64,000 nt of DNA, from positions 1,670 to 65,669 of the IMG/VR virus record IMGVR_UViG_3300044950_000141; one strand, 5' to 3'. The notes under the pieces were generated by a model. It saw only the letters and a program-made list of their open reading frames with translations. It was not told where the DNA came from and did no database searches. Position 1 is the stretch's first letter. Every line of letters starts with the position of its first letter. Shown in pieces: positions 1 to 43,014 of the stretch. The translations under genes and the position numbers were made by a program. Origin of the DNA: a virus (Duplodnaviria > Heunggongvirae > Uroviricota > Caudoviricetes).

Positions 1-735
1 TCTATATAAATAATACTCACTATAAAAGTTCTCTACAGACCAGGTACACTTAAGGTCATACACTTGCCCTGTCTTTGCTTTGTGATCTAGAATTACCTTG
101 TCCATCATAGACTTAAACATGTGACCAAACACTTCATATCCTTCTACTTGTAACTGATTAAATACAGAATATTGTACATCATCTACTAAGTTTACAATCT
201 CTGCTGTGGTAGGATTAGTCTTTAGTTCTATCACTATCTTTTCAGCGTTTGCAATCTCTTGTGCAGCTACCACTGTAAGATGTTTAGGTCTAACTTCTCT
301 AATTTCTTTGTAATATACTTCAGCATCAGATCCTATAAACTTTTTAAGAACAGCATCTAAGCCTATCTTAAATCCTGAATCTGCGTGTGCATCTTTACAC
401 ATATCTTCAAAGCTTCTAGTAACTACACCATCTTCAGCTGTAGCTTCTACAGTGTGTTTATATAATGCTTCTACAAAATCCAACATCATAGCTGTTGGTG
501 TAGAAAGACATGTAGATACATAAAATCTTTCATCAAATAAATGTGGTTCCATCAATAATGTTTCCACCATTCTACCCATTGTAGCAGCTTTACTGTCTTC
601 ATCCTCAACTACTTCATTAAGGATATATTTCTTATGGTACTTTCTCCTATCTGTGGAGAATTCCTTTAGACTAGAACTACTGTCTAGATAGATTGCTCTA
701 TATTGAGCCTCTGTTTTCACTGTTCCCTGTATCAT
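1..735 (-). CDS. hypothetical protein, partial (ATG at 735; reading frame runs off window start with no stop)
   Basis: Manual minus-strand translation from ATG 733-735 (MIQGTVKTEAQYRAIYLDSSSSLKEF...) continues with no stop to position 1. It is absent from the ORF track only because its stop lies outside the window. Same orientation as neighbouring early genes. Confidence 0.4.
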   Translation of the reverse strand, partial: MIQGTVKTEAQYRAIYLDSSSSLKEFSTDRRKYHKKYILNEVVEDEDSKAATMGRMVETLLMEPHLFDERFYVSTCLSTPTAMMLDFVEALYKHTVEATAEDGVVTRSFEDMCKDAHADSGFKIGLDAVLKKFIGSDAEVYYKEIREVRPKHLTVVAAQEIANAEKIVIELKTNPTTAEIVNLVDDVQYSVFNQLQVEGYEVFGHMFKSMMDKVILDHKAKTGQVYDLKCTWSVENFYSEYYLYR

Positions 736-748
736 ACTCTTTCTAATT

Positions 749-5786: not shown

Positions 5787-6149
5787 TTAGTATTTTACGT
5801 CTATGTTGAATTCTTTAAGAACTTCTTTATCTTCTAGAAGTTTTTCTATTGTTTCTTGGTCTGTAATGTTTTCTCTGTTTAATTTCATAATTCTATACTC
5901 ATCTGGTGTATTAACGTAGTTCTTACCCATTTGAGAAATGGTAAGTGGTTTCATTGGTTTATCACCTTTCCATTGGCCTAGTTGTATCCCATGCCAATTC
6001 TTTTGTGATGAAGCAGAACCAGGCCATAGATACTGGACTGTTCCTCCTTGTCCTCGTCCAAGATAAATACCAATGCTTATGTAATTATTACTAGCCACTG
6101 CTATGAGATCTCCTTTTTGGATGTCTCCTCCATTTTTAACTTTAATCAT
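5787..6149 (-). CDS. hypothetical protein (120 aa)
   Basis: ORF track; 4-nt spacing from neighbours. Confidence 0.5.
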   Translation of the reverse strand: MIKVKNGGDIQKGDLIAVASNNYISIGIYLGRGQGGTVQYLWPGSASSQKNWHGIQLGQWKGDKPMKPLTISQMGKNYVNTPDEYRIMKLNRENITDQETIEKLLEDKEVLKEFNIDVKY

Positions 6150-6151
6150 AA

Positions 6152-6451
6152 TTAAATGCTTTTAATGATTTCTGATTTTCTGATTTCTATTTTTTCATCC
6201 ATATGCATCATCAACATAACAAGCATTTCACGTGCTTCGTTATAATCTAGTTCTATTGCCTTCTTATTAGGAAATTTGAACTTAATACCATTACCATCAT
6301 CTGTTAATGTTAATGCTGTTTCTCCTTCACATGTCCAATCTTTATGGTTTGAGTAGTTTAATTTGCTTAATATGGCTCCTCTGTTAAGATCATAATCATA
6401 ATCTAACTCTCCATTTCTATTATTCTGTACATAGACTTGTAATTCTTCCAT
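6152..6451 (-). CDS. hypothetical protein (99 aa)
   Basis: ORF track; operon packing. Confidence 0.5.
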   Translation of the reverse strand: MEELQVYVQNNRNGELDYDYDLNRGAILSKLNYSNHKDWTCEGETALTLTDDGNGIKFKFPNKKAIELDYNEAREMLVMLMMHMDEKIEIRKSEIIKSI

Positions 6452-6461
6452 AATTTTGTTT

Positions 6462-7178
6462 TTAAAAGGGTGTATCTAACATCCAATCTATCGCTAGGTT
6501 GTTGTTTTCCTTTAATAGTTTGTTAATTTTTGTAAATGTGCCTTCTGTATCCCAATCAGTTTGTTTATAAGACGCACTGGCAGGATGACTCATTGTGAAT
6601 TCCCATGTAAATGGTGCAACATACTTTTTGTATTTAGCTGCATCTTTACCTAGAAACACAACTGGTACTCCTGTAGTAGCCAACACTTCTTCAAACAGAT
6701 ACTTAGTAAAGGGTTCCCACAAATCAATGTGAGAGCCTGCTTTATTTATTTCTGTAGTCAAAGCTGCATTATACATAAGGATACCTTGTTTGGCTAAGAA
6801 AGATACATCTGGTGGTCTTTCACATGTTACGCAAAGACCATTGAACATCTCTTTCTCAATACCATCATAGAATTTTATTAGAGATGGTTGTAATATGCCT
6901 GTTGTTGAACAGCCCATTAACAGACCATCTGCTACGTATTCTCCATTCTTCATAGAGTGATAAGGACACATACCTACCATGACTAGTTTTAGTTCATCAT
7001 AAGGTGTCTCATAAAAACATCTATAAACATTCTGAGAGAGAGGGGCAATCTTCTTGCCCCTCTGACTTTCAGCTTTGAGATATTTATAGATATTATCACA
7101 TGCTTCACTTTCAATAAAAGGTTGCATAAACCTATGCCAAGAAGAATGAAACTGATCTTTAAATTTCTCCCAATTCAT
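6462..7178 (-). CDS. uracil-DNA glycosylase-fold protein (UDG superfamily), catalytic Asp replaced by Cys
   Basis: LVMVGMCPYHS aligns to the UDG family-1 water-activating loop GQDPYH (D->C). C-terminal SHPASAS aligns to the HPSPLS His-loop. Confidence 0.5.
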   Translation of the reverse strand: MNWEKFKDQFHSSWHRFMQPFIESEACDNIYKYLKAESQRGKKIAPLSQNVYRCFYETPYDELKLVMVGMCPYHSMKNGEYVADGLLMGCSTTGILQPSLIKFYDGIEKEMFNGLCVTCERPPDVSFLAKQGILMYNAALTTEINKAGSHIDLWEPFTKYLFEEVLATTGVPVVFLGKDAAKYKKYVAPFTWEFTMSHPASASYKQTDWDTEGTFTKINKLLKENNNLAIDWMLDTPF

Positions 7179-7179
7179 A

Positions 7180-7944
7180 TTAAAACATTGATAATTGATT
7201 AAGTACTATTTCTCCTTGCTCATAATCCATTGGTGTAGCATCATATGCATAGTTGTTGAAGAATGCATGTGCTTGTATATGACTCTCCATCCATTGAGAT
7301 GGGTGTGTCTCTTTCATAGCAAATGTTGTATAGTTATATAACTCCCATAAGCTATCTTTAGCATTGTAATCATGTGTAGGGGCTTTTAACTCTCTACTGA
7401 TGATGTTTAACTGTGTAGACGTAATAAACTGCTCTTCTAGCATCATTCTACCAACTAACTCAGCTTTGATACGTTTAGTGATTTCTATTTGCTTCATAGA
7501 CTCTCTTTGCTGTTGCATAAGAGTGAATGCTTCACCTGCACCTTTGATGTAATCAGTGATAGCACCTGGTGTGAAGTCTTGGATGTCACCTTTATGTCTT
7601 TTCTTAAAGGCACCAAAGTCTCCTGATACACAACCATTAGAGCATATCATAATTCTTGTACCAATAGCAAACTTTAAGCTCATGCTTCTGTCATAGCTAT
7701 TCTGCCAACCAATTTGTAATTGCATCTCACTGTCTGCTACGTTGCTGATAGAGAATCTACCATTAGCAACACTACCATCTCTAGCTGCAGAATAAGTTTC
7801 TTTGTCTAAGATAAATCCTGCTTTCTCAATGCTGTTCAATGTAAGATCCATCAATGAAGAATGGCTAACTGGTTTATATGTACGTGTTTGTACTGGAACT
7901 GCTGTATTCATTAACAGTTCCTTTGTGGTGTTAAACGTCTCCAT
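7180..7944 (-). CDS. hypothetical protein (254 aa), replication-module associated
   Basis: ORF track; start overlaps upstream gene stop. Confidence 0.5.
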   Translation of the reverse strand: METFNTTKELLMNTAVPVQTRTYKPVSHSSLMDLTLNSIEKAGFILDKETYSAARDGSVANGRFSISNVADSEMQLQIGWQNSYDRSMSLKFAIGTRIMICSNGCVSGDFGAFKKRHKGDIQDFTPGAITDYIKGAGEAFTLMQQQRESMKQIEITKRIKAELVGRMMLEEQFITSTQLNIISRELKAPTHDYNAKDSLWELYNYTTFAMKETHPSQWMESHIQAHAFFNNYAYDATPMDYEQGEIVLNQLSMF

Positions 7945-22441: not shown

Positions 22442-23016
22442 AACTAATTGATTTTAAAGCGAATATATAGCCTAATGTTGCCTCAGCTTATATATTCTAA
22501 TGTATTCATATGCAACAAATAATGTATTAGCATAGGTTCTCAACTAATACTTGTAGCGTTTTCATCCACTATTATAATACTCTTGTACTCAATGTACGTA
22601 TGACATATCTTTTTGTCAGAGCATTATATTCGTAGCTACATTAACAATAATAGATATAGTTACCACGTAGGATTAAATGTATTGTTATGCAAGGATTTCA
22701 TAGCCCTTGAACCACTTTTGTGTCATAACCATTATAATCTATCTACTGTAACCCTTATGTGTGACTCGCAACACATAAGCTATGAACTTCATCTATTAGA
22801 AATAATAACAAGGCATAGTCCACTTAAGGTAGGTATGAGCTGAATTGTTTTCCTTGTTATTATATAAAATCCCTCTGTACTCAGATGTAATGCTGAAAGG
22901 AACAACCTTTCTCTATTGCAATGTCTCTGTTAATTGTTATAAACCTTTATGATTAGTGAGTACCATATCGAGTTTAACATACTGCATTACATAAATTGTA
23001 TTACATCTGTCTATCC

Positions 23017-23031
23017 TTGGGAAATAGAAAT
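23017..23031. repeat. 15-bp direct repeat TTGGGAAATAGAAAT, copy 1
   Basis: Exact copy at 23203..23217; the two copies bracket the tRNA-like segment. Confidence 0.7.
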
Positions 23032-23040
23032 ACAGAGGTT

Positions 23041-23200
23041 GTAGTGAGGACAGGATTTGAACCTGTATGTTATACCAAATGGTTAGGGTTATATTGCTTT
23101 CTTGCGTCCAAGAAATAATGTAGTAGTTCCCATCTACGCCTCACCCTCTGTGTTTGATAGTATAACTCCATTAGCGTCTACCAATTCCGCCACCTCACTA
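23041..23200 (-). tRNA. disrupted/atypical tRNA-like locus (class-II tRNA D-arm and canonical T-arm; too long for a simple tRNA)
   Basis: Minus strand reads TAGTGAGG-TG-GCGGAATTGGTAGACGC... (perfect tRNA-Leu-type D-arm). Its 3' end reads ...ACAGGTTCAAATCCTGT-CCTCACTAC (T-arm GGTTCAAATCC plus acceptor strand complementary to the 5' GTGAGG). There are about 75 extra nt between the arms, including a second GTGAGG-GCGTAGATGGGAACTAC D-arm-like copy. Confidence 0.35.
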
Positions 23201-23202
23201 TA

Positions 23203-23217
23203 TTGGGAAATAGAAAT
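23203..23217. repeat. 15-bp direct repeat TTGGGAAATAGAAAT, copy 2
   Basis: Exact match to 23017..23031. Confidence 0.7.
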
Positions 23218-23223
23218 GGTACA

Positions 23224-23376
23224 TTAAAACATAAGACTATTCCATCTATGTGTAATATCTCCAATGGTAAATCTTATATATCCATTGTATGATGTAAATA
23301 TCTTACCCAAATCCTTGTGTTCTCCTTGTACATATCCATTATCTAATAGGTATGCAATCTTTTGTTCTGTTGTCAT
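23224..23376 (-). CDS. possible small ORF (50 aa, below ORF-track cutoff)
   Basis: Manual translation MTTEQKIAYLLDNGYVQGEHKDLGKIFTSYNGYIRFTIGDITHRWNSLMF from ATG (rc) at 23374-23376. Confidence 0.25.
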   Translation of the reverse strand: MTTEQKIAYLLDNGYVQGEHKDLGKIFTSYNGYIRFTIGDITHRWNSLMF

Positions 23377-23769
23377 ATAAATATGATTTAATTAATTAAT
23401 AATGTGTCTCATAGTCAATAATATCATCCCAATCAAGACCAGAAGTCTCAATCATCTTATCAGTAGGATAACTATCAAACACCCTAGTGCTAATAGATCC
23501 ATCTTTCATAAAGAATATCGTATTGTACATATAAATGCTATTTAATGCTATATATATTGTATTGTATAGCGTGAATTAATAATGTGTCAATAAGTGGTAA
23601 TAAGTGGGAATGGAGTACACACCACCTCTCACATTCATGCAGAATGTGTTGAGTTTCAGTGAGTTATATAATTATTCCCACCCAGATGTGTTGCTAACAC
23701 CCACCCTTATATACGAATAAGGGAAAACAAGAGCTTGGATGATGTTCCAAGCCCTTGTTAAGTGTGAGA

Positions 23770-24195
23770 TTAAGCCCCTGCCAACTCTTCAAGCTCTGCT
23801 TCGCTTGTGATGCCCACAGCAGTGTACTCTTTCTTGATAGCCTGTGCAACTTCTGCATCTAATGTAGCGTCTATCACGTGAGCGTCAATGTACTCTTTCT
23901 TGGTCTTGAACACTGCAGTTGCAGTATCACGAGTCATTGTGAACTTTCCATCTGCATAAGGAATGTAGATTGGATTGTTGTCTGCATCAACCATTGGTTG
24001 CTTGGTTGTAGGGTCAAGCTTTGGTCTTGCACCATAAGTCTTCTTTGCAACAATAGCAAAGAATTGCTTAAATTCTTCATCTTTCTTAATGCCCAATGCA
24101 TCCATCTGACGCTTGTAGATGTGGATTCTTTCGCCTTTAGTGTTGTAACCATTGAAGTTACCATTTGGTGAGAAGTTGCCTGAATTGATTACCAT
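23770..24195 (-). CDS. hypothetical protein (141 aa), GC-rich codon-optimised gene, likely highly expressed
   Basis: ORF track. Local GC and codon choice (GCC, CTG, CTC, GGC) are clearly higher than in the surrounding AT-rich genome. Isolated within the non-coding region. Confidence 0.55.
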   Translation of the reverse strand: MVINSGNFSPNGNFNGYNTKGERIHIYKRQMDALGIKKDEEFKQFFAIVAKKTYGARPKLDPTTKQPMVDADNNPIYIPYADGKFTMTRDTATAVFKTKKEYIDAHVIDATLDAEVAQAIKKEYTAVGITSEAELEELAGA

Positions 24196-24255
24196 AACGA
24201 ATTTTACAGTTTTGTAGTGGTGTCTCCACTATAGGTTTGTTAATTGTGAGCCATA

Positions 24256-24281
24256 GGGGGGATATGTCAACCCCCTTTTTT
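24256..24281 (+). terminator. rho-independent terminator-like hairpin GGGGGG-atatgtcaa-CCCCC followed by TTTTTT
   Basis: G6/C5 stem, 9-nt loop, T6 tail read directly from sequence; the T-run is only on the plus strand. Confidence 0.5.
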
Positions 24282-24289
24282 GTACACGG

Positions 24290-24400
24290 AGGTGCAATCT
24301 GGGTTACCCTCCTCCCCCATGGATACAATAAGAATGGGGGCTATGTAAAATTTTGGGGGGCTAGAGGGGGATGGGCTGATAAGACTGGGGGCATATAGAA
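24290..24400. repeat. cluster of G5-G6 tracts (and one C5) in AT-rich background
   Basis: tcccccatgg, atgggggct, ttttggggggct, agagggggatggg, actgggggcat within ~110 nt. Confidence 0.6.
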
Positions 24401-24478
24401 AATTGTGTACATAGTCAAAGCACAGGATAGTTCCACAAGGAACGTTTGCATGAATTTTTCCAAAAGTTTCATGCATAT

Positions 24479-24510
24479 TGTGTCACAGTTTTTCAAATAT
24501 TTGTGACATA
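24479..24510. promoter_or_regulatory. inverted repeat TGTCACA-N14-TGTGACA (operator-like)
   Basis: tgtcacagtttttcaaatatttgtgaca read from sequence. Confidence 0.35.
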
Positions 24511-24641
24511 TTTATATAGGTATTTGTTACAGATTTATATATATAGGTAACAATGACTTCCTGGTTTGGCTGTGTTTCACTTCTTGATTTGGCAAGTTAT
24601 AGCTTGATTATATTCTGCCAAAAGTCAATCTATAGCTTTAC

Positions 24642-24701
24642 ATAATGTGTCTTATAAGGGACACGCTCAGCTTAACAATGTTGCTTTTATGACACATTAT
24701 G
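24642..24701. promoter_or_regulatory. 11-bp inverted repeat CATAATGTGTC ... GACACATTATG separated by ~38 nt (same GTGTC/GACAC core as 24479 palindrome)
   Basis: Direct reading; core ATGTGTC/GACACAT recurs four times in 24479..24710. Confidence 0.35.
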
Positions 24702-24878
24702 ATATGTCTTTACATATAATGATGGAATTAGTTTACATATTATATGTTATAGCATATTGTTGCTCCCAACAAAATGGACCAATATTATAATATCCTGTTG
24801 TATCAAAACTAGAAAATCCTGCAAGTTTTGATAATAGGAAAAAATAAATTTGGCTGGTAAATTTATTTAGCAGTATCT

Positions 24879-24899
24879 TTGGGGGGGATTTAGGGGGGG
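24879..24899. repeat. two homopolymeric G7 tracts (GGGGGGGATTTAGGGGGGG)
   Basis: Direct reading; sits just upstream of small ORF 24938..25183. Confidence 0.6.
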
Positions 24900-24937
24900 C
24901 CCTGCTAATACCTCCTCATTAATAAAAGCTTAGATAT

Positions 24938-25183
24938 ATGGTAGTAGTAAATGTGTTGTTGGTTATAGTGACGTTACTTAGTATGGCAGTGATTGTATGG
25001 GGGTTAGTCTGCTTTGAGGAGTATGAGATAGGTATAGAGTTTCTCCCTAAAGACTACAATAGTTTTGAACTAGGGGTGTCTAATAGAAACTACAAGCTAG
25101 ATGATGGAGGATTAGAACAAGAGCTTAGGATAGGACTGTTGTTATTCAGTGTTATTTTCCTGTTTAGGAGATTTGATGCATAA
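24938..25183 (+). CDS. possible small membrane protein (81 aa)
   Basis: ORF track; hydrophobic N-terminus VVVNVLLVIVTLLSMAVIVWGLV; weak. Confidence 0.25.
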   Translation: MVVVNVLLVIVTLLSMAVIVWGLVCFEEYEIGIEFLPKDYNSFELGVSNRNYKLDDGGLEQELRIGLLLFSVIFLFRRFDA

Positions 25184-35430: not shown

Positions 35431-36396
35431 ATGGGTAAGATAGGAAAAATCTCTACTATTAAGAAAGAGTACAACAACTCACAATTGCAAACAATGCAAG
35501 GTGGACTGGCTATGAAAGGTTATACAAGAATCCCTGGTACAGGTGTATTTAAGTATCCTTATAAAGAACTTGATGGACAGTATAGAACAGGCTTAGATCC
35601 TAAAGCTGCTTACATTAGAAGAATCCAAGACCCTTTAGAAAGGGAATTAGAAACTGAAAGAGTAACAGAGTTAAAGGAAAAACTTGAATCAGCATTGAAT
35701 GCTGACTTAGGTCCTCGTTCTACATTCTGGAATTATGGCTTATCAACTTCTGTTGATGATTCATTGCACGTTCAACCAGTTAAGTTGTTAGATGGTGATA
35801 ACTATTTTGACTTTACATTGCCATTGCAAGAATTAGCATTCTCATGGTTGAGAGTTCATCCAACAATTGCTTCTAGCTACCAAGCTTGGGAGCGTGGTGA
35901 ATTCCCTGCTGATATTCAGTACTACGTTGCTGATGATGATATTGAGAACAAGGTAATGTTTAAGAAGAAGCAACTTATTAATAAAGCAATTGTTAAGTTT
36001 GATAGTATGACTCCTGAAAAGAAGAAGAAAGTGGCTCGTCTACTTGGTCTTCCAGTATCAGATGATTCCAAAGAAGAATCAGTTTACAATCAAGTAGATA
36101 ACATATTGAAACAAACTGAATTCAAGAATGGCAAATATCAAGGTTTGAATCCAATTGAGGTATTCAACAGATTTGCAGATATGAAAGAAAACTTACTCCA
36201 TATTAAAGACTTGGTTAAACAAGCTGTTGCTCATTCAGTTTATAGAGTTAGACCTAATGGAAGAGTCTATGAAGGTGAATTTGAAATAGCTGCTGATGAA
36301 GATGAATTAGTGAAGTTCTTAGCAGATGAAGATAACCAAGACCAATTGTTAGTTTTAGAAGGTAAATTGAAAGGTAAAAAAATAGCTGCAATATGA
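35431..36396 (+). CDS. virion structural protein (321 aa)
   Basis: ORF track; module context; shares the AACTACATATG leader with genes at 32388 and 45678. Confidence 0.5.
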   Translation: MGKIGKISTIKKEYNNSQLQTMQGGLAMKGYTRIPGTGVFKYPYKELDGQYRTGLDPKAAYIRRIQDPLERELETERVTELKEKLESALNADLGPRSTFWNYGLSTSVDDSLHVQPVKLLDGDNYFDFTLPLQELAFSWLRVHPTIASSYQAWERGEFPADIQYYVADDDIENKVMFKKKQLINKAIVKFDSMTPEKKKKVARLLGLPVSDDSKEESVYNQVDNILKQTEFKNGKYQGLNPIEVFNRFADMKENLLHIKDLVKQAVAHSVYRVRPNGRVYEGEFEIAADEDELVKFLADEDNQDQLLVLEGKLKGKKIAAI

Positions 36397-40563: not shown

Positions 40564-43014
40564 ATGGCTTGCAATCCTGGCGATCCTTGTTATAACGCAT
40601 ATTATCAACCTAGTGAAAACTGTGGTTCTATCCCTTGTGAAACTACAGCAGATCGTGTTATATATAATGGACCTAACCTTCCTTGTTCAGGAATTCAAAC
40701 TGGAGAAAACTTAGACTGTGCTCTATCAAAAATAGATGATGCTCTTTGTAATGGTGTTGTTGGTCTTAATGGTACCTCTGGTACTTCAGGTATATCTGGC
40801 TCGTCTGGCATATCTGGAACCAATGGAACATCTGCAACTTCTGGTGTTACAGGTCCTTCTGGAACAAATGGTACTTCTGGTTCATCTGGAATTACAGGTA
40901 CATCTGGAACATCATCAAGTGGTTCTAGTGGTACTAGTGGCTCTTCTGGTAGAGCTGGTTCAAATGGCACTAGTGGTTCTGCTGGTGTGAGTGGCACAGG
41001 TGGTACAAGTGGTACTTCAGGTACTTCTGCTACTAGTGGTACTTCAGGTACTGATGGTTCAAATGGAACTTCTGCTACTTCTGGAACAGATGGAAGTAGT
41101 GGAACTAGTGGTAGAGATGCCACAGCAGGAACATCTGGTCAAGATGGAACATCTGGTACAAGTGCAAGTTCTGGTACCTCTGCTTCTAGTGGATTAACTG
41201 GTACAGCTGGAACATCTGGAACATCTGGCACATCAGCATCTTCTGGAACTGCAGGTCAAGATGGAGATAGATATTTAACAAGTTCTACAACTTCTTTATT
41301 AATAGGAACAGGATCAAAAAGTTTAACAGTAGGAACAGGGTTAGCATATAGTGTTGCACAGACAGCTATCATAGTATATGATGTAAGTAATACAATGCAA
41401 GGAACTGTTACCTCTTATAATAGTGGAACAGGTGCATTAGTAATTAATGTCACCACCATAGCAGGTGCAGGAACCTATGCTGTATGGACAGTAAATCTGT
41501 TTGGTGCATCTGGTGGTAATGGTACTTCTGGAATAGCTGGTACTTCTGGCACAGCTGGTACGTCTGCTTCTTCAGGTTCATCTGGTTCTTCAGGGTCATC
41601 TGGTACTTCAGGTACCACAGGTACATCTGGAACATCTGCTTCTTCAGGTAGCTCAGGAAGTTCAGGTAGCTCAGGATCAACAGGTACATCAGGTACTGCT
41701 GCCACTTCTGGTACAAGTACTGGTACAAGTGGTACAAGTGGTGTAAATGCAACTTCAGGAACTGCAGGTATAAATGGTTCTTCTGGAACTGCAGGTACAA
41801 GCGGAGCGAGTGTGACAGGTCCTTCAGGATCTTCAGGTACCTCAGGGTCATCAGGATCATCAGGCTCCTCTGGATCTTCTGGATCTTCAGGTACTTCTGC
41901 TTCTTCTGGTTCAAGTGGATCAAGTGGATCAAGTGGATCATCTGGTTCTAGTGGGTCAAGTGGTACAGCTGGAGCTAATGGTGCTGTTGGTTCTTCAGGA
42001 ACATCAGGATCTTCAGGATCTTCAGGAACAAGTGGAGCTAATGGAACAAGTGGTTCATCTGGATCTTCTGGATCTTCTGGTTCAAGTGGCACTAGTGGTG
42101 CTAATGGAGCAAATGGTTCATCTGGTACTTCTGGAGCATCTGGTACAAGTGGTTCTTCAGGATCAAGTGGATCAAGTGGATCAAGTGGATCTAGTGGAAC
42201 ATCTGGAGCTAGTGGTACATCTGGATCATCTGGTAGTTCTGGTTCTAGTGGCTCTTCTGGATCTTCAGGAACATCTGGAGCTAATGGTGGTAATGGTTCC
42301 TCTGGAACATCTGGTGCTACTGGTGGTCCTGGATCACCAGGAACAAGTGGGTCGTCTGGTTCTAGTGGTTCTTCTGGATCTTCTGGAACATCTGGTGCTA
42401 CTGGTGGTCCTGGAGGAAATGGTTCTAGTGGTACAAGTGGAGCTAACGGAGGGAATGGTAGCAGTGGAACAAGTGGAACAAGTGGTGCAAGTGGTTCTTC
42501 TGGAACTGCAGGTACATCTGGTGCGAATGGAGGAAATGGATCTTCTGGAACATCTGGAAATACTGGTACTCCTGGGTCTTCAGGAACCTCTGGAGCCAAT
42601 GGTGCTAGTGGTACATCAGGAACAGGATTTACTTCTATATCTCCAACCACTGCAGAAGCTGTACTTACAGCTAATGGTACATCTAATAGTGCAACAGCAA
42701 ATACAGGAGTTTATATTTCTAGTGGAATTTATTTAAATGCTGCTGGTTATTTTGAAACATCAGATATTAGATTTAAAAATGTATTAGAAACAAACCCATC
42801 TATAGATTTGCCACTAGATGTAATTAAATTTACAAGAACAGATGAAGACAGTAATGCAATTAGATATGGTTATTCTGCACAACAAGTACAATCAGTACTA
42901 CCAGATGCAGTTTCAGGTGATGAAAAATTATCTGTAAATTACATGGATGTGCATACATTAAAAATTGCAGCCCTAGAAAAAAGAATTGCTGAACTAGAAG
43001 CTAAATTAAAATAA
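40564..43014 (+). CDS. collagen-like tail fiber with C-terminal peptidase S74 intramolecular chaperone domain
   Basis: Two long (G-X-Y)n tracts (X,Y mostly S/T/A/N). C-terminus ETSDIRFKNV...YGYSAQQVQSVLPDAVSGDEKLSVNYMDV...LEKRIAELEAKLK matches the S74 consensus (SDxRxK Ser/Lys dyad, GfiAQEvqevlPeaV, terminal coiled coil). Confidence 0.75.
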   Translation: MACNPGDPCYNAYYQPSENCGSIPCETTADRVIYNGPNLPCSGIQTGENLDCALSKIDDALCNGVVGLNGTSGTSGISGSSGISGTNGTSATSGVTGPSGTNGTSGSSGITGTSGTSSSGSSGTSGSSGRAGSNGTSGSAGVSGTGGTSGTSGTSATSGTSGTDGSNGTSATSGTDGSSGTSGRDATAGTSGQDGTSGTSASSGTSASSGLTGTAGTSGTSGTSASSGTAGQDGDRYLTSSTTSLLIGTGSKSLTVGTGLAYSVAQTAIIVYDVSNTMQGTVTSYNSGTGALVINVTTIAGAGTYAVWTVNLFGASGGNGTSGIAGTSGTAGTSASSGSSGSSGSSGTSGTTGTSGTSASSGSSGSSGSSGSTGTSGTAATSGTSTGTSGTSGVNATSGTAGINGSSGTAGTSGASVTGPSGSSGTSGSSGSSGSSGSSGSSGTSASSGSSGSSGSSGSSGSSGSSGTAGANGAVGSSGTSGSSGSSGTSGANGTSGSSGSSGSSGSSGTSGANGANGSSGTSGASGTSGSSGSSGSSGSSGSSGTSGASGTSGSSGSSGSSGSSGSSGTSGANGGNGSSGTSGATGGPGSPGTSGSSGSSGSSGSSGTSGATGGPGGNGSSGTSGANGGNGSSGTSGTSGASGSSGTAGTSGANGGNGSSGTSGNTGTPGSSGTSGANGASGTSGTGFTSISPTTAEAVLTANGTSNSATANTGVYISSGIYLNAAGYFETSDIRFKNVLETNPSIDLPLDVIKFTRTDEDSNAIRYGYSAQQVQSVLPDAVSGDEKLSVNYMDVHTLKIAALEKRIAELEAKLK
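40765..41265 (+). repeat. collagen-like G-X-Y coding repeat tract 1
   Basis: GTSGTSGISGSSGISGTNGTSATSG... triplets. Confidence 0.7.
41500..42630 (+). repeat. collagen-like G-X-Y coding repeat tract 2 (~370 residues)
   Basis: GSSGSSGSSGTSGANG... triplets; generates spurious long ORFs in other frames on both strands. Confidence 0.7.

Follow-up and report, generated by a model that had tools for sequence, protein, structure and literature searches.

The minus strand of a 64,000-nucleotide stretch of a Crassvirales (crAss-like) phage genome (IMG/VR record IMGVR_UViG_3300044950_000141, positions 1,670 to 65,669; the whole stretch is referred to here as the window) carries a gene for a tRNA-shaped RNA of 158 nt. 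We consider it probable that this is a self-contained gene for a non-decoding RNA of about 158 nt, in which the body of a leucine tRNA serves as the chassis for a 107-nt, type-specific module and which is mobile as a unit. The 107-nt module occupies the place of the anticodon arm and the variable arm, and the RNA is judged to be unable to decode. The RNA was observed to have the scaffold of a tRNA and to be conserved over its whole length in at least nine unrelated phage contexts; it belongs to a family of hundreds that have the scaffold in common and whose cores contain no anticodon-arm or coding signal, and in the lineage of the window the gene is an insertion/deletion polymorphism bounded by a duplication of 15 bp. 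An earlier note, made from the sequence alone, had proposed that a small element was inserted into, or recombined at, a phage tRNA gene, with an unusually long structured tRNA-like RNA as the alternative. The sequence features behind that proposal are not due to chance, as other phages have the 158-nt arrangement too and the repeats delimit a unit that is cleanly present in some genomes and absent from others.

Read on the minus strand from 23199 to 23042, the gene has the order AGTGAGG-TG-GCGGAATTGGTAGACGC-T-AATGG-(85 nt)-CCATT-TGGTATAACAT-ACAGGTTCAAATCCTGT-CCTCACT-A. The Leu-type D arm, the T arm and the pairing acceptor strands recognized in the earlier note were all present (Table 1), and so were the extra nucleotides between the arms, which number about 78. 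The Rfam tRNA model RF00005 gave a full-length match with a long insert, scoring 36.7 bits against a gathering score of 29, with all 71 model positions aligned and the 85-nt stretch occupying the place of the 7-nt anticodon loop. ARAGORN at default settings called no tRNA in the whole 64-kb window, and a search of Rfam with positions 22700 to 23500 yielded no family other than tRNA at an E value of ≤10, apart from a chance small nucleolar RNA match. The base following A73 is C74, at 23041, and CCA is not encoded. The 9-bp inverted repeats that had been thought to bracket an inserted unit were found as TAGTGAGG and CCTCACTA at 23042-23049 and 23193-23200, with 8 of 9 bases, and proved to be the acceptor stem plus positions -1 and 73. 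An internal GTGAGG-CG-TAGATGGGAACTAC is likewise present, as had been reported. Its interpretation as a second acceptor/D-arm copy was rejected because this hexamer is GTGCGG in most homologues and does not track the change in the acceptor stem. The element read as a second D arm in the earlier note is the adjacent module hairpin at 23123-23137.

The core module is composed of T26, AATGG, the 85-nt stretch, CCATT and TGGTATAACAT, which ends in U48. Two pairings of this core are possible, either AATGG with CCATT, as in the Rfam alignment, or a 9-bp helix between GUUAUACUA and UGGUAUAAC, as in the consensus fold. The predicted fold of the whole RNA had a free energy of -43.9 kcal/mol (z = -2.58).

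Copies of the window-type RNA with 96 to 99% identity over the 158 nt were detected in other phage contigs (L081, L224, L225 [=L230, L234], L226 [=L228], L229, L231, L232 and L233). Including the window, there were at least nine distinct genomic contexts with unrelated flanks, and the similarity of the copies to the window spanned only about position -3 to about position +76. Two base pairs exhibited compensatory changes. At acceptor pair 4:69, the window has G:C where the other window-type copies have C:G; at the second pair of the hairpin at 23098-23115, the window and L081 share U:A, and the remaining copies have C:G. The T loop varied among copies (TTCAAAT, TTCGAAT, TTCGATT or TTCAATT) and the T stem was kept. 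Approximately 7 variable sites were counted by eye in the 107-nt core versus approximately 7 in the 51-nt scaffold, so that the core is at least as constrained as the scaffold. As the same 158 nt occur in at least nine contexts with two compensatory pair changes, these comparisons indicate that positions 23042 to 23199 specify a genuine long tRNA-shaped RNA, conserved with compensatory changes. It was thus the alternative offered in the earlier note that found support: the same arrangement of about 158 nt exists elsewhere with compensatory changes in two helices, which the note had itself named as the observation that would speak against an insertion.

A scan of metagenomes with a 20-mer taken from the hairpin of the window gene produced no matches because most copies carry the compensated variant. 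Adjoining the window-type copy in L081, at 600-741 (+), was a second long tRNA-shaped gene with an 8-bp D-loop hairpin and an unrelated core. The 3' trailer of the window gene, CAACCTCTGTATTT (minus strand; 23028-23041), was complementary at 12 of 14 positions to AAACACAGAGGGTG in the core (23142-23155). As this trailer is absent from the other copies of the window-type gene, the complementarity may be due to chance or may be a trace of the insertion event.

Table 1. Coordinates, in the window, of the RNA gene, its parts and the flanking repeats
Feature	Position	Strand	Basis
Whole tRNA-shaped RNA gene, position 1 to discriminator A73, 158 nt	23042..23199	-	RF00005 and homologous copies
Acceptor stem 5' strand AGTGAGG, with T at -1 (23200)	23193..23199	-	Pairs with 23043-23049
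D arm GCGGAATTGGTAGACGC, Leu/class-II type, with A14, A15 and G18G19	23174..23190	-	Rfam alignment
Core module, 107 nt, in place of anticodon and variable arms	23067..23173	-	Near-invariant in at least nine contexts
Module hairpin UUUCUUG-GACG-CAAGAAA	23098..23115	-	Compensatory change at second pair
Module hairpin GUAG-AUGGGAA-CUAC	23123..23137	-	Predicted in consensus fold
T arm ACAGG-TTCAAAT-CCTGT	23050..23066	-	Rfam alignment
Acceptor 3' strand CCTCACT (23043-23049) and discriminator A73 (23042)	23042..23049	-	Rfam alignment
Direct repeat copy 1, TTGGGAAATAGAAAT	23017..23031	.	Exact 15-mer; single-copy in L001, L002 and L013
Direct repeat copy 2, TTGGGAAATAGAAAT	23203..23217	.	Exact 15-mer
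171 bp present in the window, missing in the closest relatives	23032..23202	.	Alignment to L001, L002 and L013
Left half of conserved intergenic motif of ~40 nt (right half, 23203-23232)	22997..23031	.	Alignment of relatives

The scaffold of this RNA is common to a large number of phage genes. A T-arm/acceptor 23-mer, CAGGTTCRAATCCTGTCCTSACT, matched at least 119 contigs in IMG/VR, the largest number of copies being 7, within 3.3 kb. Extraction of the family produced at least 141 distinct genes and then, with a looser 3' pattern, at least 232. All members have the 5' consensus AGTCAGG-TG-GCGGAAT(T)GGTAGACGC, which is followed, after the core, by T-ACAGGTTCRAATCCTGT-CCTGACT-A-C; the window gene fits the search pattern and deviates from this scaffold consensus only by the compensated G4:C69 pair. 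Total lengths ranged from 69 to ~181 nt. The cores of the at least 232 members, of 16 to 146 nt, fell into 201 types, 180 of them singletons, and the window's core was unrelated to those of the other types. Only a mild enrichment of UAAG-type words was shared between cores. Some members also had hairpins grafted into the D loop (L081 600-741, L106, L138, L155 and L190). A second T-arm-like hairpin was noticed within the cores of L114, L211, L157, L178, L208 and L106, and nested core hairpins such as GTTGG-TTCGATC-CCAAC and ACGG-TTCGATT-CCGT looked as if pieces of other tRNAs had been nested there.

Family members were usually located inside canonical tRNA arrays, where they scored 31 to 50 bits with the tRNA model versus 55 to 73 bits for most of their canonical neighbours. 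Six canonical tRNA-Leu genes on the same phage contigs all started with GCC and had normal anticodon arms. Relatives of the window were identified in IMG/VR by their large terminase (TerL), and the best 80 of 510 were used, with 10-kb flanks; a scaffold covariance model (R1) detected members in only 3 of these 80, namely, L032 (two copies), L040 and L056. This model is informative for the relatives only, since it breaks the window copy, whose core is too long, into two weak partial matches. Among 185,579 species-representative genomes (GTDB), the 23-mer was present in 23 stretches, all on contigs of metagenome-assembled genomes (MAGs) and many in freshwater Bacteroidota bins. No isolate genome among these representatives contained it, and mimicry of a host tRNA or a role as a phage attachment site (attP) was rejected on the basis of this distribution. 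No scaffold match at ≥80% coverage was obtained in GenBank phages, Rfam represented the family only through weak generic tRNA matches, the scaffold sequence was not found in any paper of the library searched, and keyword searches of the literature gave no description of such a family. This large phage RNA family is apparently undescribed. Rfam searches at permissive thresholds of the window region and 12 loci (~30 members) returned only tRNA, tmRNA and freshwater-1 matches, and a known ribozyme or aptamer in the cores was accordingly rejected as a candidate. The freshwater-1 motif (RF02979) lay at L097 4124-4186 (+), with a score of 70.1 bits (gathering score, 72), in a tRNA array containing family members.

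Bases involved in the tertiary structure of tRNA were retained throughout the family. U8:A14 was present in 146 members and the Levitt pair A15:U48 in 138, with C48 in 6 of the 9 members having G15. The D stem covaried (GCG/CGC in 89 members, GTG/CAC in 11, GCA/TGC in 3, and others). These patterns of sequence variation indicate that the L shape of a tRNA is under selection. Compensatory changes were also apparent in several core types; between L092 and L129, an entire 7-bp stem was swapped around a conserved GCUGGGUAA loop. At the ends of the RNA, U was found at position -1 in 135 of 170 members, A73 in 157 and C74 in 165. U at -1 is the base preferred by bacterial RNase P, and the canonical tRNAs of the same phages likewise have A73-C74.

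Leucine identity in Escherichia coli and Aquifex depends on A73, A15:U48, G18G19, A20a, U8:A14 and D/T-loop contacts, whereas charging requires neither the anticodon nor the long variable arm, and minimal tRNA-Leu molecules still act as substrates (PMC9976931). All of the leucine identity bases are present in the window RNA. This RNA is probably leucylated, because every known identity element for the bacterial leucyl-tRNA synthetase (LeuRS) is kept and LeuRS ignores the anticodon.

The hypervariability of the cores raises the question of whether these genes are decaying. A former copy of tRNA-Leu(UAA) with a degenerating anticodon region and no function could leave UUAAG/UAAG-like remnants of the Leu(UAA) anticodon loop, as were seen in many family cores, and could pass through a form such as L032 3330-3416, which resembles a Leu(UAA) tRNA with a 9-nt loop; the extreme diversity of the cores and their modest fold stability would also be in keeping with decay. 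We regard a functionless pseudogene as unlikely, because the scaffold and the tertiary-contact bases are kept and the Levitt pair covaries, because the window-type core is as conserved as its scaffold in nine contexts by the counts given above, and because compensatory changes occur within cores of several types. Furthermore, seven dead copies, as in L091, are not expected in compact phage genomes.

A role confined to the surrounding transcript was also considered. In plant mitochondria, t-elements act as cis processing signals, their tRNA shape recruiting enzymes that cut the transcript around them. The window gene might similarly be a processing or termination signal that recruits RNase P and RNase Z to cut a polycistronic transcript, the released RNA having no role; its intergenic position and its U-1 and A73-C74 processing features are those of such a signal. 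This explanation has a low probability in our judgement. Extra punctuation would be redundant for most members, which lie inside tRNA arrays, punctuation needs neither LeuRS identity bases nor a conserved 107-nt core, and the closest relatives of the window manage without the element at this site.

The question of decoding was addressed by comparing real with shuffled cores. Short members of the family (e.g., L160, L125 and L056) have a plain hairpin with a 3- to 4-nt loop in place of the anticodon arm. Among 133 members, ARAGORN at default settings called 32 tRNAs with the real cores and ~28 with shuffled cores; when introns were allowed, the numbers were 111 and ~103, and 53 different anticodons were assigned across the family. 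The cores therefore add no anticodon-arm signal, as call rates were alike for real and shuffled cores. The window RNA has a cloverleaf with a 7-bp acceptor, D arm and T arm according to its RF00005 score, and it lacks a 5-bp anticodon stem closing a 7-nt loop with U33 and a purine at 37, position 33 being G in the Rfam register; its 158 nt exceed the ~70 to 95 nt of a tRNA.

There is little reason, on these results, to favour a decoding tRNA from whose anticodon loop an intron of ~76 to 78 nt is spliced, either by itself or by a host or phage enzyme. With introns allowed, ARAGORN did offer a tRNA-Ile(UAU) for the window, reported as (tat)i(40,76), in which an intron of 76 nt is placed at position 40, corresponding to the canonical 37/38 site. 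The hexamer GUUAUA, of which the putative anticodon is part, is able to form a helix with UAUAAC close to the insert's 3' end, in the manner of anticodon-intron helices, and a canonical tRNA-Ile(UAU) is present in phages of this kind, e.g., L091. However, the call places an A:A mismatch at the closing position of the anticodon stem, in a body that is of Leu type and class II, and shuffled cores yield such calls at nearly the rate of real ones; it was discarded as uninformative. An insert of 76 to 78 nt is far below the size of a group I intron, whose catalytic core takes ~200 nt or more (the smallest known are ~200 nt), and no intron or ribozyme family was matched at an E value of ≤10. The central helix would have 6 bp, where a bulge-helix-bulge has 4 bp, the endonuclease that splices such introns is archaeal/eukaryal, and no splicing endonuclease or ligase was present among the window ORFs (open reading frames) scanned. 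In the short members, no loop could hold an anticodon.

Nor did the core behave as a coding sequence. A 33-codon ATG ORF at 23070-23171 (-) extends over the entire core, from the 5' anticodon-stem-like strand to the variable region. Stop-free frames were not enriched across the family (32, versus 42 ± 4 in shuffles), and the ORF was taken as a chance occurrence on the basis of this test. Pair 3:70 of the window RNA is U:A and not the G:U of tmRNA, ARAGORN with the -m option reported no tmRNA, nor did ARAGORN predict one anywhere in the 64 kb of the window, and Rfam gave no tmRNA match at the locus. A coding or tmRNA-like core was rejected.

We turn now to the repeats flanking the gene. The exact 15-bp direct repeats at 23017 and 23203 described in the earlier note were confirmed, and TTGGGAAATAGAAAT occurs at only these two sites in the 64 kb. 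The closest relative, L001 (99% TerL identity), carries a single 15-mer and has nothing corresponding to 23032-23202, because window segments 22999-23031 and 23203-25000 align to overlapping L001 positions, 6134-6166 and 6152-7886. A single-copy site with no gene was also found in L002 and L013. On the minus strand, the 171-bp unit consists of TAT, the RNA gene and CAACCTCTGT, with a boundary that can be slid anywhere within the 15-bp repeat. The polymorphic unit is thus the whole RNA gene with 3 nt upstream and 10 nt downstream, along with which 15 bp of a conserved intergenic site are duplicated, and it has the form of a target-site duplication with a matching empty site. The intergenic site is a motif of ~40 nt, TAATGTACCATTTCTATTTCCCAAGGATAGACAGATGTAA on the minus strand, which is split by the RNA gene in the window and is intact and 94 to 100% identical in L001, L002, L013, L027, L039, L044, L078 and L080, in which its flanks have diverged.

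These findings did not favour the insertion of an element into a pre-existing tRNA gene. The 15-bp repeats bracket the entire gene and not the extra 78 nt, the empty-site relatives lack the whole gene and keep one 15-mer, and the intact tRNA of ~87 nt that was to be expected at this position was present in none of the relatives compared; no uninterrupted version of the gene, i.e., a tRNA without the core, was detected in the 80 relatives or in IMG/VR. That a normal phage tRNA-Leu gene was broken up by a mobile element or by recombination, leaving the repeats as a footprint, is hardly credible. The direct repeats are real and mark an insertion/deletion polymorphism, and the scaffold is clearly descended from a class-II Leu-like tRNA. 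However, both repeats are external to the complete gene, the supposed inverted repeats are the acceptor stem, the scaffold-plus-core unit is conserved with compensatory changes in at least nine contexts and the core lacks repeats and termini that belong to it alone. What survives of the earlier proposal is that something did insert here, although what inserted was the complete RNA gene.

Other members of the family were also flanked by direct repeats, of 23 nt in L089 and 10 nt in L107, and two flanking repeats of ≥14 nt were seen where none were expected. The 23-nt repeat of L089, AACCTTTAAATCAGAATAAGATG (minus strand, ~6662-6684), appears to extend over the start codon and ribosome-binding site of the gene that follows, and the discriminator of the L089 member is followed by a T9 run. 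As for a transposase, a reverse transcriptase or the terminal signals of a mobile unit, none of the neighbouring genes was recurrent, no search having been aimed specifically at reverse transcriptases. A comparison of the window with L040 revealed a common 5' junction, CCCAA|TAT|AGTGAGG, and the rare G4:C69 acceptor pair in combination with unrelated cores (107 versus 62 nt) and different D stems. Conversely, the window's core is near-identical to cores that are carried on C4:G69 scaffolds in other phages. Such combinations are consistent with cores having been exchanged through recombination in the conserved ends of the scaffold.

We propose the following course of events for the self-contained RNA gene. 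The transcript would be excised in the manner of a tRNA, with RNase P cutting after U-1, 3' trimming at A73-C74 and subsequent addition of CCA, and would accumulate as a stable L-shaped RNA. LeuRS, which disregards the anticodon, could then leucylate it. The tRNA body would in this way act as a chassis for processing, stability and possibly charging, and the variable module would provide specificity, its most likely role being that of a decoy or sponge for, or a binding partner of, a host or phage factor. The gene would move between phages as a unit with edges that coincide with the ends of the RNA, as a kind of RNA "moron", and modules would be swapped between scaffolds through recombination in the conserved ends.

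Several points weigh against this proposal. We infer the processing, charging, chassis role and mobility steps from the features described above. The exact 3' pattern was used to collect the family, and the invariance of the T arm and acceptor is partly a product of this construction. The family cores were only modestly more stable than shuffles (mean z = -0.79), and with 201 types in 232 members, many of the cores might be weakly constrained filler and not specific modules. The two pairings of the window's core are indistinguishable from the sequences, because the bases concerned never vary among copies. ARAGORN with introns allowed does offer the tRNA-Ile(UAU) with its intron at the canonical site. 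Clustering of ORFs around 143 loci revealed no partner protein, as no cluster occurred in more than 15 loci, and no tRNA-related enzyme was encoded among the window ORFs scanned. When the cores were compared by BLAST with 2.7 Mb of related phage DNA, nearly all matches were to other family members, with a few short matches unexplained. In a single-window search, nucleotides 5 to 22 of the window core (GGAGUUAUACUAUCAAAC) were antisense at 17 of 18 positions to 35997-36014, within a plus-strand ORF at 35431-36396 (E = 0.02); this match is probably due to chance, and a guide or antisense function was rejected. The function of the window RNA is also one that we infer, because no partner protein, antisense target beyond this marginal match or known aptamer was found.

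A wider interpretation is offered tentatively and with considerable doubt. Phages of mostly freshwater, Bacteroidota-associated communities would use one Leu-tRNA body as a universal chassis for hundreds of structured RNA modules. The RNAs would be matured and perhaps leucylated by the tRNA machinery of the host and would never decode, and the modules would act as effectors or decoys in phage-host or phage-phage conflict. The genes would pass between unrelated phages as units precise to the ends of the RNA, in some cases with duplication of the target over a variable length, a pattern that mobility through an RNA, as in short interspersed nuclear elements (SINEs), or some other novel mobility could produce. 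Of the known non-decoding tRNA mimics (tmRNA, t-elements, Y-RNA modules and T4 stable RNAs), none is a family of hundreds with one Leu body and different cores. RNAs of this type, if matured and charged like tRNAs, would represent a new class of phage effector or decoy RNAs and a natural precedent for the tRNA-scaffold trick of biotechnology. The family accounts for many "odd" or missed tRNA calls in viral metagenomes, since ARAGORN misses the window's RNA or calls a tRNA-Ile with an intron. Furthermore, with such a clean empty-site polymorphism and a spread so exact at the RNA edges, the movement of small RNA genes from one phage to another can be tested directly.

The assignment of the window to Crassvirales is based on ORF matches to the Crassvirus major capsid protein (1.2e-27) and muzzle protein (7.1e-36) and to a P22-like portal. 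A DnaB/primase/UDG/SNF2 replication module lies in the left arm, and gene orientation is divergent near 24 kb, where the GC skew changes sign. Nothing resembling the window region at the DNA level was detected among GenBank phages. The RNA gene is located between ORFs in a long intergenic stretch, and 22442-23223 comprises ~780 bp without ORFs of more than 40 aa. Islands with 85 to 100% identity, despite diverged surroundings in relatives, were observed at 22455-22522, 22864-22891 and 22997-23031 plus 23203-23232, and more at 23528-23574 and 24441-24475; these conserved islands could represent small RNAs or sites of regulation. Two pairs of perfect inverted repeats, CAGATGTAAT/ATTACATCTG and ATGTAATGC/GCATTACAT at 22882-22893 and 22984-23009, among which ATTACAT is repeated, lie in and beside the conserved intergenic motif and look operator-like. 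Elsewhere in the window, an 816-aa ORF in the structural module (40564-43014, +) contains collagen triple-helix repeats (5.9e-59), and an HNH endonuclease ORF is situated at the left end (1485-1961, -). In the crAss-like relatives, ARAGORN predicted minus-strand tmRNA genes in L017 (1996-2417), L019 (800-1211), L020 (1685-2096), L023 (1460-1871), L025 (2744-3161) and L040 (23-406), with predicted tags of 23 to 27 residues ending in ...ALAA, ...AVAA or ...EIAA.

Comparison with known systems places the window RNA closest to a class-II tRNA-Leu in its body, with a 7-bp acceptor stem, A73, U8, A14, A15:U48, a G18G19 D loop, a TTCRAAT-type T loop and no encoded CCA. As with phage tRNA-Leu, the family sits among phage tRNA genes, and the window RNA scores above the Rfam tRNA gathering score. 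It differs from tRNA-Leu in having no 7-nt anticodon loop, in having 107 nt in place of the ~35 nt of anticodon and variable arms and in being rejected by ARAGORN at default settings, and its first pair is A1:U72, unlike that of the canonical Leu tRNAs of the same phages (GCC start; n = 6). Intron-bearing tRNAs, such as those with bacterial group I introns in tRNA-Leu(UAA) or archaeal bulge-helix-bulge introns, resemble it in having extra sequence in a Leu-type anticodon region, but its insert is too short for group I, a bulge-helix-bulge geometry is unlikely and a canonical loop is not recoverable above chance.

The non-decoding reuse of the acceptor/T-arm shape for tRNA enzymes is shared with tmRNA, YrlA/Y-RNA modules, t-elements and mascRNA-type mimics, which engage RNase P and RNase Z, the CCA enzyme and aminoacyl-tRNA synthetases. 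In contrast to tmRNA, the window RNA has no tag ORF and no G3:U70; in contrast to YrlA, its ends are free; and in contrast to t-elements, the family members are independent genes. Unlike tmRNA, YrlA and t-elements, it keeps a full D arm with the Leu identity set. Like tRNA-derived SINEs and phage morons, the family is a tRNA-derived unit found at many unrelated sites, with edges that are RNA ends and, in some cases, flanking duplications of 15, 23 and 10 nt; it differs from SINEs in having no poly(A)/LINE-type tail (LINE, long interspersed nuclear element) and in that no reverse transcriptase was identified, without a specific search for these enzymes.

The closest natural analogues of the window RNA are T4 stable RNA species 1 and 2 (rnaC and rnaD), small stable RNAs of unknown function in a phage tRNA cluster, and rnaC has a tRNA-like T arm and acceptor at its end (GenBank annotation; weak tRNA-type match). 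There is no sequence similarity to the T4 RNAs, and rnaC reached only 17.5 bits with the tRNA-Sec model and gave no full tRNA-model match. Neither rnaC nor rnaD is known to belong to a hypervariable-core family. The closest architectural analogue is the engineered "tRNA scaffold", which Ponchon and Dardel reportedly devised in 2007 for recombinant RNA expression, with a cargo RNA replacing the anticodon arm. This scaffold confers processing and nuclease resistance on its cargo. Both have an intact acceptor/D/T body with a structured RNA grafted at the anticodon stem; the window RNA differs in being natural, phage encoded and of Leu type, and some members of its family have D-loop grafts too.

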